7,543 nucleotides of DNA from a virus (Duplodnaviria > Heunggongvirae > Uroviricota > Caudoviricetes): IMG/VR virus record IMGVR_UViG_2706794685_000002, one strand, 5' to 3'. The notes below the pieces were generated by a model. The model had not been told where the DNA came from. It worked only from the letters and a program-made list of their open reading frames with translations, and searched no databases. The translations under genes and the position numbers were made by a program. This document shows, one piece after another, positions 77-7,079 of the stretch (position 1 is its first letter; each line of letters starts with the position of its first letter).

Positions 77-403
77 TCACTGGCGCTGACACTTCATCAC
101 CTCCGGACGTAAATCACCATCCTTTGGTGCATTCAGAAACGCGTTCAGTGTCCCCGGTGCATCAGTCGGTGCCACATCAATATCCCCGACACGGGTTGGC
201 TGCCAGCCGTTACAGTGAAGCGCAACCTCGTAATACCCCGGCTCAGCCTCAATCACATAAGCACCGTTATTGTCCGTCACGCAAGTGGCAACAACGTGTG
301 CCACAACGGTCGGACTGGTTCTTCTGGCCCGCAGTTCAATCGCACAATTTACGACAGGTTTACCCGCCCCATCTTTCAGTACACCTGAAATCTTTACTGC
401 CAT
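77..403 (-). pseudogene. stf: Side tail fibre (Stf) N-terminal fragment, truncated remnant
   Basis: Minus-strand ORF 77..445; the internal Met at 401-403 begins MAVKISGVLKDG..., which I recognise as the lambda Stf N-terminus, and GTLNAFL / RPEV also match. A GGGGTG Shine-Dalgarno-like sequence precedes this ATG, whereas the track start at 445 has none. The ORF stops after about 109 aa, and the in-frame sequence past the stop (1..76) no longer looks like Stf. Confidence 0.5.
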
Positions 404-414
404 ATTCACCCCAC

Positions 415-439
415 AAAAAGCCCGCCTGAACCAGCGGGC
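415..439 (-). terminator. Putative rho-independent terminator downstream of lom
   Basis: Perfect 6-bp all-GC stem gcccgc (420-425) / gcgggc (434-439) with an 8-nt loop, adjacent to aaaaa at 415-419, which is a T-tract on the minus-strand transcript. It sits 28 nt past the lom stop codon. Confidence 0.5.
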
Positions 440-466
440 AGTCATAACACTGTGTTACCTGGCTAA

Positions 467-1066
467 TCAGAACTTATAACCGACACCCACGATGAAACCG
501 TCAGTGCGCCAGTCACCACTGCCGGAACCTTCATAAGCAAGGTCAATGGCCACGGATTCGGTCGGGTTAAACTGCACGCCAGCCCCCCACGCCAGAGACG
601 TGTTGCTGTGGCGACCGCCATCACTTCCGGTCAGCACATCGTGCGTTTTCCCCTTGTTGTCAGTTACGCGGAGATAATCCCCGGAGAAGGTCGACACACG
701 GCTGTAAGCCACGCCCGCCATCGCATACGCGCTGAACCATTCATTCACGCGCACAGACGGCCCCGCCATCACGCTGAACCAGCGGTTACGCACGGAATCC
801 TCATGCCAGCGGGTATCGCTGTAATGCGTTTTTTGCTCATCTTCAGCGTTGGCATAACTGAATGACGTAATCAGCCCCAGCGTGTCCGTAAACTCATAAC
901 GGTATTTCACGTTAATGCCCTTCAGGTCATCGCTGCCTGGCATATCAGTATGGGTCTGAAGATACCCGGCGCTCAGCGTGGACTGATGTTCAGACGCCCA
1001 TGCAGGCGCACCGGATACGGCCAGACAGATGGCTGCGGACAAAATGGCTGCACAAACTTTACGCAT
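467..1066 (-). CDS. lom: Lom, Ail/Lom/PagC-family outer-membrane beta-barrel protein (phage moron)
   Basis: 199-aa ORF with an ATG at 1064-1066 and a GAGAGG Shine-Dalgarno upstream. N-terminal signal peptide MRKVCAAILSAAICLAVSGAPAWA. The C-terminus ...AYEGSGSGDWRTDGFIVGVGYKF matches the lambda Lom C-terminus and ends in an aromatic residue, as outer-membrane barrels do. Position immediately after J is the lambda arrangement. Confidence 0.9.
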   Translation of the reverse strand: MRKVCAAILSAAICLAVSGAPAWASEHQSTLSAGYLQTHTDMPGSDDLKGINVKYRYEFTDTLGLITSFSYANAEDEQKTHYSDTRWHEDSVRNRWFSVMAGPSVRVNEWFSAYAMAGVAYSRVSTFSGDYLRVTDNKGKTHDVLTGSDGGRHSNTSLAWGAGVQFNPTESVAIDLAYEGSGSGDWRTDGFIVGVGYKF

Positions 1067-1087
1067 AATTACCTCTCGCTTTTCTGC

Positions 1088-1114
1088 AATAAAAAAGGCA
1101 CCATTTCTGGTGCC
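1088..1114 (-). terminator. Putative rho-independent terminator between J and lom
   Basis: Stem ggcacc (1097-1102) / ggtgcc (1109-1114), loop atttct, adjacent to aataaaaaa at 1088-1096, which reads as a T-tract on the minus-strand RNA. It lies between the J stop (1134) and the lom Shine-Dalgarno. Confidence 0.5.
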
Positions 1115-1133
1115 CGTATCTGGGTTATAAAAT

Positions 1134-4100
1134 TCAGCTAATCGTGATGCCTGCAGTGGCTTTCTTCATCACCACAACCAGCAAATCGCTGATACTTGCT
1201 GTGGGATACCAGCCATTTACCAGCCATGCCGATACAGAAAACTCCAGCGTCATGTGACCGTGACCGGCAGGCATATCAATAACACCCGTATATATCAGCG
1301 TATTATCCAGGGTCGTTCGGTTATAAATTTCAGCACCGTTTTTCTTCACTATCAGGCGGCATGACGAATAAATATTGTTATTCTTCCGCTCATGTTTAGC
1401 ACCGCGAAACGCCACCGCGGGAATAACAATTTGCCGATCAAACGGCTGATCGTCATAAACCCTGACGGTAATGGTCCCTGATGGCCACCTCTCCGGTGCC
1501 CGGGAGTCCCGTGGGAAAGGTTTGCCCACTGTTTTAACGAGATCGCCTTCAATCTGGTTCGCGGACAATTTTCCCAGAACCCGACAGTTCTTATTAATCG
1601 TGACGTTGTTGAGCGTCCCGGAGTTCGCGTTCACGTTACCGCTGATATCGGCATTTTTCGCCGTCAGCCGTCCGCCAGGTGTCAGGGAAAATGCCGGAGG
1701 ATTACCGCCGCTGGTAATGGTCGGAGCCGTCAGGCATTTCAGGAACACGTCGTTCATGAATATCTGATCGCCCTGACCAACAAACATCGGCTTTGTGTTG
1801 CCATTCGCAGGATTAATCATCGCAATCCTGTCTGCCGCCAGCAGCACCTGACTCTGCATTCCTGCTGGCGTATTCTCAATACCGGCACCGATACCCGCAA
1901 TATAAAGGCGTCCGTCCTTCATCTGTTGCAGCTTCACAGCCCACATGCTGTTCAGGTTATTATTTGTATCAACCTGAACTTTCTGTATCTGCTGGATTGC
2001 AGCACTCTGATTTTCCAGTTTTTTATTGACGGTTTGCGTGATTTCATTGCTGACATTCGTAATGGACGTCCTGATTTCAGTCAGGTCCGGCGCAAGCTGA
2101 CCGTTATCAATCTGCGTCCACAACTCCTTGCCGAGATGCGTTTTATTGATCAACCCTTTATAAAAATTCAGATAACCTTCTGCATCATCGCTCGCCCGAC
2201 CGATGGCCTCCACAAATGCCGATTTGCCAACGGTGTTCACACTGCGAACGTAAAAATAATAATCATGGCCCGGCCTGATATTGATACTGGCGGCTATCCA
2301 GTACAGCGCCGTGCCAAGATAGCGGGCGCTGGTTTCAACCTGCCTGATATCCGCAATCCGCTTTTCCGAAAACCAGAACTCAAACTGCACCGTCGGGTCA
2401 TATACAGCCAGTTTCGGGACCGCCGTTATCTGAAAATACCCCGGTATCAGTTCAATAGTGACAGGCGCTGCCGGTGCCGCAATCCGGAACGATACCGACG
2501 CCGGATCGCCCTGCTGCCCCCGGGCATTTACCGCCCGGACTGTCAGACTGTAATTCCCCAGCGCCAGCTGCCTGAAGCGGTATGTGGTTTCCGTCGTCCT
2601 GGCTGTGCTGACCAGCCGCTCACTGCCGTCGTCCGCTGCCACGGTCAGGCGAAGCAGGAAGCTCACACCCTTCACCACCTTCGGCGTGTCCCATCGCGCC
2701 AGCACCTGATATTCCCCGCTGTCTGCGGTGACTTCGGCGGTCAGATGCTGCACCGCTGGCGGCGTGACACCATTCACCGTGCCGCGCCGGTCACCGTCAA
2801 AGTGTGCCCCGTTATCCACGATGGCCTCTTTTTCCGGCACATGCTGCACGGCGGTGATGGCATACGTGCCGTCGTCGTTCTCACGGATACTCACGCAGCG
2901 GAACAGACGCTGGCGCAGCGTCGGCAGCTTCAGCCCCCACACGCTGTATTCTGCAACGCCGTCAGGAACCCGGCTCACTTTCACCTTCACGCCGTCGGTG
3001 ACGGACTGGACCTCCACGCTGACCGGATTGCCACTTCCGTCAACCAGGCTTATCAGCGTGGTACCGGAGGACGGCAGCGTGATTTCACGGTCGAGCGTCA
3101 GCGTCCGGGTCTGGCTGTTCACCGCCAGTACGCGACCACCGGTGCTGATACCGGCATAATCATCATCGCAGATTTCAATGACATCACCCGGTACATGGCG
3201 AAGCCCTTCTGCGCCCACGCTGAAGTCCACGGTCTGCGTTTCCAGCAGTTCCGTTTTAATCAGCCACAGCCCGGCTCGGTGTGCCTGCCCCCGGCTGGTA
3301 CAGCCAAAGGCATCCATCTTCGTGACATTACGACCGTAACGGGCAATGGCCTGCGTATCCTCCACAAGCTCTGTCGCCGTCTCCCAGCCGTTATCTGGGT
3401 CAATCCAGTTCACCTCAACGGCATTATGGCGGTCCTTCAGGGCGCTGAAGCTGTAGCGGAACGGCGCGCCATCGTCCGGCATCACCACATTACTGCGGTT
3501 ATAGGTCCACACCTTATCCGACGGTCGGTCCTGCACGAACGTCAGCATCTGTCCGTTCCATACCGGCATACAGCGCATCGCCGAGCAGAAATCACTGAGA
3601 ACATCCCACGCCTTACGCTGTGTGGTCAGGTAAGAGTTACAGGTGATGCGCGGCTCCGTGCCGCCAAATCCGTCCGTCACTGACTGGTCGCAGTACTGGC
3701 CGATGACATACAGCGCCCATTTGTCCACATCTGCCGCACCAAGACGTTTCCCCATGCCGTAGCGCGGATGAGTGAGCATGTCCCACAGACACCAGGCCAT
3801 GTTGTTGCTGTATGCTGGCTTAAGCGTTCCGTCCCAGATACCGCTGTATTGCCGCGTCTGCGGGTTATAGTTCGACGGCACCTGCAGAATGCGCCCGCGA
3901 AGATGATAATTGCGACTCACCTGCTGGTTACCGAACTGCTCTGAATCCACCTGCACGCCGACCAGCGCCGTGTTCGGGTAGCACTGTTTCACATCGATGA
4001 TTTCGGTGTACGACGACCAGAGCGTTTTGTTCTGCAGCTGGTCTGTGGTGCTGTCCGGTGTCATCCTGCGCATCCGGANNNNNNNNNNNNNNNNNNNNNN

Positions 4101-4694
4101 NNNNNNNNNNNNNNNNNNNNNNNNNNNNNNNNNNNNNNNNNNNNNNNNNNNNNNNNNNNNNNNNNNNNNNNNNNNNNNNNNNNNNNNNNNNNNNNNNNNN
4201 NNNNNNNNNNNNNNNNNNNNNNNNNNNNNNNNNNNNNNNNNNNNNNNNNNNNNNNNNNNNNNNNNNNNNNNNNNNNNNNNNNNNNNNNNNNNNNNNNNNN
4301 NNNNNNNNNNNNNNNNNNNNNNNNNNNNNNNNNNNNNNNNNNNNNNNNNNNNNNNNNNNNNNNNNNNNNNNNNNNNNNNNNNNNNNNNNNNNNNNNNNNN
4401 NNNNNNNNNTTTCACTTCCGTACCCAGCACCGTCTCGGAGCCGGAGGATTCAAAACCCTCCGGCGGTGTCTGCTCCTGCTCACCTGCACGGAACACCACC
4501 GTAACACCGGAAAAGTTTGTCTTCCCCTCGCTGTCCAGGACCGGCGTACCGTTCAGCAGCACGCTTTTTAATCCATCCACCGGACCGTCAACCGGCCCTT
4601 CGCTGATGGCATCAATCACACTCAGCAACTGCGTGGATTTCAGGTTGTCCTTCGCTTCGCGCGGGGTATGCCCCTTACTGCTGCCTTTACCCAT
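1134..4694 (-). CDS. J: Host specificity protein J (tail tip / central tail fibre), interrupted by an assembly gap
   Basis: N-terminus [34 protein letters not shown]... matches lambda J. The segment after the gap (…[30 protein letters not shown]…) is J-like and a fibronectin-III-like stretch is visible. A 60-bp I-J spacer matches lambda. The 1186-codon length is read through 111 X codons, so the true length is unknown. Confidence 0.88.
4079..4409. other. Run of 331 N (assembly or scaffold gap) inside J
   Basis: Uninterrupted n characters from 4079 to 4409 in the supplied sequence. Confidence 0.99.
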
Positions 4695-4716: not shown

Positions 4717-4736
4717 AAACCGCCCGCAGGCGGTTT
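4717..4736 (-). promoter_or_regulatory. GC-rich hairpin in the I-J spacer (possible attenuator or RNA stability element)
   Basis: aaaccgcc (4717-4724) / ggcggttt (4729-4736) with loop cgca. On the minus-strand RNA the GC core is followed by a U-rich run (uuuugucguuua) just upstream of the J ribosome-binding site. Confidence 0.3.
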
Positions 4737-6041: not shown

Positions 6042-6740
6042 TTACTGAGAAAGTTTATTGATGGAAAGGAAACCGCCGAAATTACCGGTATTGTTGCGCA
6101 ACTCACACCCGCGCATACACTTGCTGCATTTGTCCTTCCGGATATCCGTCGTTGGTTTGTCGAACTCGTCAGCCACTGCCCTGCCCGTGTAACCACACTC
6201 ATCAGAACGGTAAGTCCACATACAGGTATTCGCCAGCATGATACGCCCCGGGAAAACCGCGCCATCCGTCTCCGTTGGTGTGGCCAGCACAAAAGAGGCA
6301 CTGACCGCGCTCAGTTCGCTGCACTGCTCGATGCGCCAGCGGCTGATCACCTCCTGTTCCGGATCGGCGTCGCTGTTTCCGTTGACGAAGTTCACCGCAT
6401 CCAGAAAACGGGCGTAAACCTTACGCCTGACCACCGTTCCGCCGACCAGACTCTGCAGGTCTTCCGCCATCCCGGTGACCATTCCGTGCAGGTTAGAAAC
6501 CGTCAGTGTCGGACGGGCAGCACTGCCCTTGCCGTTCAGTTCAAATCCCGTCCCCTGAATGGGGTATGCCTGATACTGCCGCCCCTGCCAGGTAACCGGC
6601 TCACCTTTTTCGTTCTGCTCATTACAGAAAAAATAACGTTCACCACCGACCTCTGTCAGATCGATTTCCCAGAGCACCACCTGGGCTGACTGAGTGAGGC
6701 GTGTCGTCTCATGATGTGTTTCCTGTGGAATATCCTGCAT
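6042..6740 (-). CDS. L: Minor tail protein L
   Basis: 232-aa ORF, the same length as lambda gpL, starting MQDIPQET.... Five cysteines cluster in the C-terminal part, consistent with the Fe-S-binding domain reported for gpL. Synteny M-L-K. Confidence 0.9.
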   Translation of the reverse strand: MQDIPQETHHETTRLTQSAQVVLWEIDLTEVGGERYFFCNEQNEKGEPVTWQGRQYQAYPIQGTGFELNGKGSAARPTLTVSNLHGMVTGMAEDLQSLVGGTVVRRKVYARFLDAVNFVNGNSDADPEQEVISRWRIEQCSELSAVSASFVLATPTETDGAVFPGRIMLANTCMWTYRSDECGYTGRAVADEFDKPTTDIRKDKCSKCMRGCELRNNTGNFGGFLSINKLSQ

Positions 6741-6749
6741 CAGAGCCTC

Positions 6750-7079
6750 CTATGCCACGACCTGTTCAAAATCTGCCGTTATGGTTACCCACAACGCCCC
6801 CACGCTTGCCGACCATTTACGACAAACCACCCTGATCGGCTTCCAGTCATAAGGTGGCGTCCACTGAAATGCGCGGACGCCACCGTGCCGTTCCAGAAAG
6901 GCTTTTAAAAATGGGTGTTCACCTTTACGAACACGTATCTTCACGCTGTAAGTCGACAACTGGTTATTCAGTCCCGCCGCACGACGCTGTTCATAACCAT
7001 CGCCCAGCTTCACTGTCACCACTTTCGGCTCTGATACCACATTCATATCCGGGCGCACTTTCCAGTGAAACGTCTCCAT
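6750..7079 (-). CDS. M: Minor tail protein M
   Basis: 109-aa ORF, the same length as lambda gpM. Its ATG overlaps the H stop codon (TAATG on the minus strand). Synteny H-M-L. Confidence 0.88.
   Translation of the reverse strand: METFHWKVRPDMNVVSEPKVVTVKLGDGYEQRRAAGLNNQLSTYSVKIRVRKGEHPFLKAFLERHGGVRAFQWTPPYDWKPIRVVCRKWSASVGALWVTITADFEQVVA

Follow-up and report, generated by a model that had tools for sequence, protein, structure and literature searches.

A probable intrinsic terminator at the distal end of J in a lambda-like prophage, with lom as an optional gene behind it

The window, as we call the whole 7,543-nucleotide stretch of DNA that was analysed, carries on its minus strand the distal end of a lambda-like tail operon, as indicated by the list of open reading frames and by Pfam matches. 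Genes M (6750..7079), L (6042..6740), K and I are all recognised on this strand, along with J (1134..4694), the tail-tip or host-specificity gene, whose product of 1186 aa possesses the full J domain set (Phage-tail_3, Ig_J, Ig_J_second, Phage_Tail_Tip and Ig_GpJ_C) and whose stop codon is a TGA at 1136..1134. Behind J, also on the minus strand, lies lom (467..1066, with the ATG at 1066..1064), encoding an outer-membrane beta-barrel protein of the Ail/Lom family of 199 aa (Pfam PF06316, Ail_Lom, E 4e-129, full length), and behind lom lies the N-terminal part of stf, the side tail fibre gene (77..403, minus strand), recognised by the Pfam domain phage_tail_N and by comparison of its translation with lambda Stf, the start (ATG 403..401) being placed by homology to lambda orf-401. 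The homology to lambda Stf extends over only about 103 codons and is followed by divergence and a stop, so stf appears truncated, and the prophage may be defective or rearranged at that end of the window. The J-lom region is 93% identical to its best phage match, and when 251 nt spanning the J-lom junction are used as a query, 13,793 matching places are obtained, distributed over 4,359 of the 5,426 complete E. coli genomes, making the window one copy of a very common prophage module.

In minus-strand order, the sequence that joins the two genes reads J TGA-AATTTTATAACCCAGATAC-GGGCACCA-GAAA-TGGTGCCT-TTTTTATT-GCAGAAAAGCGAGAGGTAATT-ATG (lom, 1066). A spacer of 18 nt (AATTTTATAACCCAGATA C; 1116..1133, minus strand) separates the J stop codon from a hairpin with an 8-bp stem and a GAAA tetraloop (1096..1115, minus strand), made of the 5' arm GGGCACCA (1115..1108), the loop (1107..1104) and the 3' arm TGGTGCCT (1103..1096), and recovered by folding, by terminator scans and by covariation. 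The stem is composed of five G-C pairs, two A-U pairs and one G.U pair, the latter being the outer pair. Abutting the stem is a U tract, T6ATT (1088..1096, minus strand), seen in both the terminator scan and the alignment, in which a T run (1096..1091) is followed by A1090 and then by TT (1089..1088), and whose first T is shared with the stem, where it pairs with G1115. The lom leader, GCAGAAAAGCGAGAGGTAATT (1067..1087, minus strand), follows and includes the Shine-Dalgarno sequence GAGAGG (1077..1072). The end of the stem is 19 nt from the Shine-Dalgarno sequence, and the end of the T tract is 21 nt from the lom ATG. The preliminary description of this DNA had placed a hairpin at 1088-1114, some 20 nt before the lom Shine-Dalgarno sequence; the structure is indeed real on the minus strand, at very nearly that distance, and only the outer G.U pair has to be added to its coordinates.

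Intrinsic termination is an established general mechanism, relying on a GC-rich stem of about 5-14 bp, a loop of 3-8 nt and an abutting U-rich tract of about 7-9 nt, and we infer that it applies at the J-lom site, where the hairpin has all of these elements and is positioned as a terminator should be, after a stop codon, in sense orientation and outside coding sequence. The predicted folding energy is -14.2 kcal/mol (z -2.95 in a segment of 46 nt and -3.83 in one of 36 nt), and none of 200 shuffles folds as well; thus a stem too weak to form, which the preliminary description had named as a reason to abandon the idea, is not what was found. Folding of the opposite strand is weaker (-12.1, z -1.67), and no T run follows the fold there, the T run being confined to the sense strand of J and lom. 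Terminator prediction on the minus strand, also suggested earlier, locates the J-lom site in both a loose and a strict version. The loose scan lists the hairpin but does not discriminate, as it returns 8 sites versus 6.2 expected. The strict scan (6 or more bp of stem, a dG no higher than -10, six or more T in eight, and T at each of the first three bases) returns exactly two sites over both strands of the 7.5-kb window, the J-lom hairpin and a hairpin after lom, both intergenic and both on the coding strand, while a dinucleotide shuffle of the window is expected to give 0.03 hits. As to the possibility of a chance inverted repeat beside a T run, the near-shuffled yield of the loose scan is what speaks in its favor, and we give it practically no credence, given the strict-scan expectation, the failure of shuffled sequences to fold as well, the compensatory changes found in relatives and the same architecture at the corresponding junctions of lambda and of a third lom class; a chance origin is already refuted by the comparative data.

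By a d'Aubenton-Carafa-type score, calculated with modern energies, the hairpin reaches 30.6, and the hairpin at the J-lom junction of lambda reaches 9.0; the corresponding values are 25.0 for the lambda hairpin that we identify as tR2, and 11.8 for the one that we identify as t-oop. The hairpin of the window type (class 1 in terms of its lom gene) is thus predicted to be a tighter gate than the lambda J-lom version. No Rfam 15 family corresponds to the hairpin, the only hit within 300..1500 being a spurious lncRNA match (E 0.18) located elsewhere.

Features of this kind have already been entered at the same site in the records of sister phages. One example is phage 434 (OL657226), in which a 'terminator' feature is present at 18940-18966 and in which the hairpin, the T tract and the lom leader are identical to those of the window. 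Another example is mEp460 (NC_019716), with a 'rho-independent terminator' at 18380-18406 formed by a homologous hairpin, GGGCGTCA-GGAA-TGACGCC. A third example is phage 21 (OL657228), in which the same hairpin is annotated as a terminator at 19195-19222; unlike the window, phage 21 has no lom, and the terminator stands directly before stf. All three are positioned 17-19 nt after the J stop codon, belong to the same hairpin family and carry T6ATT, as does the window, and the records of 434 and mEp460 additionally annotate a second terminator, after lom. These annotations are software predictions, not experiments. Judged by its sequence, the hairpin is a putative intrinsic terminator of the ordinary kind already annotated at this site in sister phages.

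Lambda itself presents a more distant case. Its J-lom hairpin, CGTCCG-GGAA-CGGGCG followed by TTTTATTAT (18920-18935), occupies the same slot and shares with that of the window a stem, a GNRA loop and a T tail, with a Shine-Dalgarno sequence and the lom ATG some 20-30 nt further on, whereas the sequence of the stem is unrelated, shorter (6 bp) and weaker (-9.0 to -9.7 kcal/mol). The hairpin that follows lom in lambda (19612-19633) is, in turn, clearly homologous to the second hairpin of the window. At the J-lom junction of a third class of lom, the arrangement is GGGCACCT-CAGG-AGGTGCC and T6ATT. The lambda records J02459 and NC_001416 contain no terminator features at all, and in the Rac prophage of K-12 both J and the J-lom junction have been lost. 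Tandem terminators, t'J1-t'J4, were reportedly mapped downstream of lambda J by Luk and Szybalski in 1983. Our literature search found no described J-lom terminator, no described lom promoter and no account of the t'J terminators; a Term-seq data set for EHEC Sakai exists (GSE143631).

A junction that joins J directly to stf, without lom, is matched by 29 phage records over 80% or more of its length; we have read it in five of these, Lambda_4C10, phage 21, Lambda_2E9, PhiR63_1 and ev207. In all five, the J stop codon is followed by the same spacer, a hairpin of the same family and T6ATT, which is joined to TGTGGAGTGAATATG (stf), placing the stf ATG 11 nt after T6ATT. In the window, the hairpin and T6ATT are joined to GCAG...lom...GCCCGCTGGTTCAGGCGGGC-TTTTT, and this is joined to GTGGGGTGAATATG (stf), with the sequences matching on both sides of the indel. 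The indel thus consists of the 21-nt leader, which is its left edge, the lom open reading frame, a 3' untranslated region and a second terminator, and its junctions fall within the two T tracts. The second terminator, at its right edge, is the hairpin GCCCGC-TGGTTCAG-GCGGGC with T5 (415..439, minus strand; -14.6 kcal/mol), one of the features annotated in mEp460 and 434; its stem occupies 439..420, and 11 nt separate the end of its T run from the stf ATG, so that lom is bracketed by two terminator-like hairpins. Since the J-lom hairpin is present in phages devoid of lom, the terminator is a feature of the J end and does not depend on lom. The 18-nt spacer, found in the same lom-less phages, is likewise not specific to lom; its core, TTATAACCC, is conserved, and positions -55/-54 are variable. 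The earlier reading of the hairpin as a terminator between J and lom therefore stands as to the motif and its J-to-lom direction, but its framing as a feature of lom regulation has to be refined, given the lom-less relatives.

The slot behind the J terminator accommodates more than one class of lom. The Lom protein of the window is 48% identical to lambda Lom and 48-52% identical to the other Lom classes, and the Lom of a third class shares about 60% identity with lambda Lom and about 50% with that of the window. Three classes of Lom thus share one slot, with near-identical 5' and 3' flanks that include both terminators (415..1133 in the window, and corresponding parts of the IMG/VR loci L001 and L091-L126), and some of the class 1 and class 3 copies of lom have different downstream sequence. 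The pattern suggests that cassettes encoding a diversifying surface protein are exchanged by way of their conserved flanks. Comparison may be made to morons (a concept of Juhala et al., 2000; reviewed in PMC3594210), one definition of which includes a promoter of their own. Like morons, lom is optional between conserved late genes, is equipped with a downstream terminator and is reported to be expressed from the lambda prophage; unlike a moron so defined, the lom cassette has no promoter of its own in the 21-nt leader. The GC content of lom (0.56 versus 0.51 in J) is not clearly deviant. One contig (IMGVR_UViG_2671180353_000009, listed by us as both L235 and L003) contains two copies of lom, at 4282 and 5778, 1.5 kb apart, each accompanied by its own J 3' end and hairpin, one of the GGGCGCC type and one of the GGGCACC type, and the terminator that follows the first lom copy contains an N; two prophages have probably been joined here in scaffolding, rather than one having undergone a true tandem duplication. 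Separately, most of the Lom hits outside Escherichia look like lambda sequence; hits of about 45-47% identity to the Lom of the window, the identity typical of the lambda type, are found on short low-coverage contigs (L162-L173 and others) labelled Neobacillus, Kitasatospora, Pseudomonas, Shewanella, Paenibacillus and others, and these lambda-type hits in unrelated genera are almost certainly contamination by lambda spike-in or control DNA.

Pairing was compared in the relatives, whose J-lom spacer loci were gathered both via the Lom protein and via the lom leader. The arms of the stem occur as GGGCACCA/TGGTGCC, GGGCGCCA/TGGCGCC, GGGCGTCA/TGACGCC and GGGCACCT/AGGTGCC, and the loops as GAAA, GGAA, CAGG and a flipped form, TTTC. 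When 16 distinct haplotypes of the 8-bp helix are aligned ungapped, 96.9% of the cells are paired, versus 37-60% when the partners are slid by one to three columns, and three of the eight pairs display double, compensatory changes (A-U/G-C, C-G/U-A and A-U/U-A), and in none of 500 shuffles is pairing or covariation as high as that observed. This formal count does not include lambda, whose hairpin was placed one column off by MAFFT. These compensatory changes show that the pairing is under selection, although the sequences are closely related and recombining, and the events are accordingly few, amounting to three pair positions and a handful of independent changes. A census of IMG/VR gives a similar picture, with 17 hairpin variants in 146 distinct contexts, of which 141 are fully paired with a dG of -12.6 kcal/mol or lower, and with every weakened stem (through mismatch, double wobble, deletion or replacement of an arm) being a singleton. 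T6ATT is identical in all 16 aligned class 1 and class 3 haplotypes. The intermediates between paired states are G.U or U.G wobbles on the J-sense strand (loci L058, L143, L195, L198 and L228), which would be A.C on the other strand, and this, along with the one-sided T tract, points towards an RNA structure read in the J-to-lom direction and away from a DNA palindrome.

Two kinds of unusual hairpin were encountered in the same material. One is a loop that is exactly inverted on an unchanged stem, GGCGCCA-TTTC-TGGCGCC, in L015, L018, L033 and four more IMG/VR loci, representing five distinct contexts of the census; this is the signature of a palindrome-mediated loop flip, and since it is tolerated, the sequence of the loop is not essential. 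The other is L011 (IMGVR_UViG_2537561977_000017), in which the 5' arm and everything upstream of it, including J, are replaced by unrelated DNA ending in ...CTGATCGGCATTA, the replacement covering about 20-300 nt upstream of the lom leader and leaving a 5-bp stem of -6.4 kcal/mol, probably as a result of an insertion or a rearrangement with its breakpoint inside the terminator.

Some of these data may be read at the level of DNA, with the palindrome serving as a recombination linker or junction, or as a protein site, in the exchange of J, lom and stf, and with the RNA hairpin as a by-product. The flanks of lom (the first hairpin with the leader, and the 3' untranslated region with the second hairpin) are far more conserved than lom with its three classes, the indel junctions lie in T tracts, a hybrid stem in L292 looks like a crossover inside the loop, and the loop flip is a change typical of DNA palindromes. 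However, tolerated intermediates that are G.U, with no A.C on the sense strand, are expected of RNA paired in one orientation, neither a cruciform nor a dimeric protein site needs a T tract on one side, and in lambda a wholly different stem sequence maintains the same architecture, which argues against a sequence-specific protein site. We therefore see little to recommend a DNA-level role as the primary one.

We consider it likely, based on the features described so far, that the hairpin is a Rho-independent terminator at the distal end of J, acting on the RNA that runs from J to lom. Upon transcription of the GC-rich stem of 8 bp and its GAAA loop by ordinary RNA polymerase, the hairpin would form in the nascent RNA while the weak rU:dA hybrid of the U6AUU tract occupies the active site, and the transcript would be released about 20 nt before the lom start codon. 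In lytic growth, late polymerase modified by a Q-type antiterminator would ignore both the J-lom and the post-lom terminators, and lom and the side tail fibre genes would then be transcribed as the last part of the long late mRNA, with the terminator serving as a gate that opens conditionally and separates the essential tail genes from the accessory genes that follow. The arrangement of genes is consistent with such a gate: in the window, late genes follow terminators with no promoter between them, lom at 21 nt and stf at 11 nt after the respective T tracts, and in the lom-less relatives the short distance from T6ATT to the stf ATG means that stf can be transcribed only through the hairpin. 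As the Q gene and the late promoter (pR', tR') are outside the window, antitermination is what we infer from lambda biology, in which a late mRNA of 27 kb that depends on Q is described and the genes next to J are lom-stf-tfa. Q antitermination of the pR'/tR' type would account for late expression of lom, stf and tfa behind an intrinsic terminator. The tR' terminator of the lambdoid late operon is located just after its promoter and acts as a regulatory switch, whereas the J-end terminator, for which no regulatory role is known, is reached after about 20 kb of the operon.

How lom would be expressed outside lytic growth is a separate matter. The preliminary description had pointed to almost no room for a lom promoter after the hairpin, and this is borne out by the 21 nt between the T tract and the ATG, six of which are Shine-Dalgarno sequence, and strengthened by the indel analysis. 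A simple consensus scan, limited to sigma-70, reveals no sense-strand candidate in J or in or near the lom leader, the nearest minus-strand hits being at 5676-5648 and 6659-6630, and the same scan of lambda J reveals no sense-strand candidate either. Three candidates were considered individually and rejected as lom promoters. TATAAC at 1129..1124 has no -35 element (AGGCAT is found at that position), is devoid of the final T and is present also in lom-less phages, in one of which it becomes TAAAAC. TTTATT, in the T tract, would as a -10 element have its -35 position within the stem, with matches at 3 of 6 positions. Finally, half sites resembling a PhoP box are present in some variants only. 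On the plus strand, antisense within J, the window contains its best promoter-like match overall, TTCACA-16-AATAAT (10 of 12 positions; 2236..2263), and the same hexamers with the same spacing are present antisense in lambda J (17882..17855, minus strand); this may represent an antisense promoter that has been conserved, or it may be coincidental, the coding sequence itself being conserved.

Lysogens of lambda have been reported to express lom and bor, one study having failed to detect lom expression, and the one paper found to mention the lom promoter (PMC2147009) describes its regulation as little known. With no space for a promoter in the cassette, any lom transcripts in lysogens must either originate upstream and pass the hairpin by leakage or be initiated at the hairpin or within it, and reliance of lom on read-through or on an upstream promoter, as suggested earlier, seems plausible from the sequence. 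The lysogenic expression reported for lambda sits awkwardly with an efficient terminator 20 nt upstream of lom and no promoter after it.

As an alternative to termination as the main role, the hairpin with its U tract, located in a long antiterminated operon, could have been selected mainly for RNA stability or processing of the late mRNA, with termination incidental, either as a barrier protecting J mRNA from 3' exonucleases after cleavage or as a 5' stem-loop of a lom transcript. The two roles are not mutually exclusive, selection for pairing fits any function of an RNA hairpin, and similar hairpins are present where termination seems pointless, between I and J in the window and between D and E and between I and J in lambda. 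For the 5' stem-loop version, the weak -10-like TATAAC would place initiation right at the stem base, around 1119-1115; this, however, runs into the shortcomings of that element listed above, including its presence where lom is absent, and no promoter passes the consensus scan. The perfectly conserved U6AUU abutting the stem is, moreover, a signature of termination for which a decay barrier has no need, and we regard a role mainly in stability as unlikely, though deserving more attention than the DNA-level reading. The hairpin between I and J in the window (4717..4736, minus strand) reads AAACCGCC-TGCG-GGCGGTTT and then TGTCGTTTAT; it matches the core of the I/J hairpin of lambda (15465-15480), has a weaker U tract and is outside the strict-scan hits.

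The segment from the base of the 3' arm to the end of the leader (1067..1099, minus strand, or -33..-1 before the lom ATG) is virtually invariant, with one substitution among about 100 class-1 loci chosen solely by their lom open reading frame, in contrast to the variable stem, spacer and lom coding sequence. We base this on the unconditioned set of about 100 loci, since one diversity profile had been selected on the leader motif and is circular for -33..-1. The constraint exceeds the obvious need of the U tract and the Shine-Dalgarno sequence and could reflect translation control, binding of a small RNA or Hfq, or use as a recombination linker.

A further suggestion is that an Hfq-binding small RNA of the J-3'UTR type ends in the hairpin and U tract, with the conserved single-stranded UUUAUAACCC as its seed. 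A terminator hairpin with a long U tail is a standard Hfq-binding module, the core of the 18-nt spacer is conserved and predicted to be unpaired, and many Hfq-bound small RNAs are known from prophages of EHEC. On the other hand, no family in Rfam matches and the consensus scan finds no promoter for such an RNA, a region of 161 nt folds no better than shuffles (z -1.26), and an apparent 13-bp stem close to the end of J, within its last 50 nt, has no conserved counterpart in the second variant of the J end. We rate this suggestion as very improbable, slightly more so than the DNA-level reading.

Overall, termination at the end of J remains the reading that we prefer, and it would place lom, stf and tfa behind a terminator that gates them off from the essential tail genes and that is owned by the end of J. 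A bolder extension, which we put forward as speculation with little expectation that it will hold, is that lom is a promoter-less gene docked behind an antiterminated terminator, with leakage through the hairpin, or initiation at it, setting its expression in lysogens, and that the T tracts of terminators are favoured docking sites for such cassettes. If this were true, variants of the stem would tune the display of Lom, from -9 kcal/mol in lambda to -14 to -16 kcal/mol in the type found in the window, and cassettes equipped with their own terminator would enter and leave late operons at T tracts, each insertion regenerating the site. Independent of this extension, lom emerges as an adhesion-associated outer-membrane gene residing in a slot too short to hold a promoter of its own, which sharpens the old question of its expression by lysogens.
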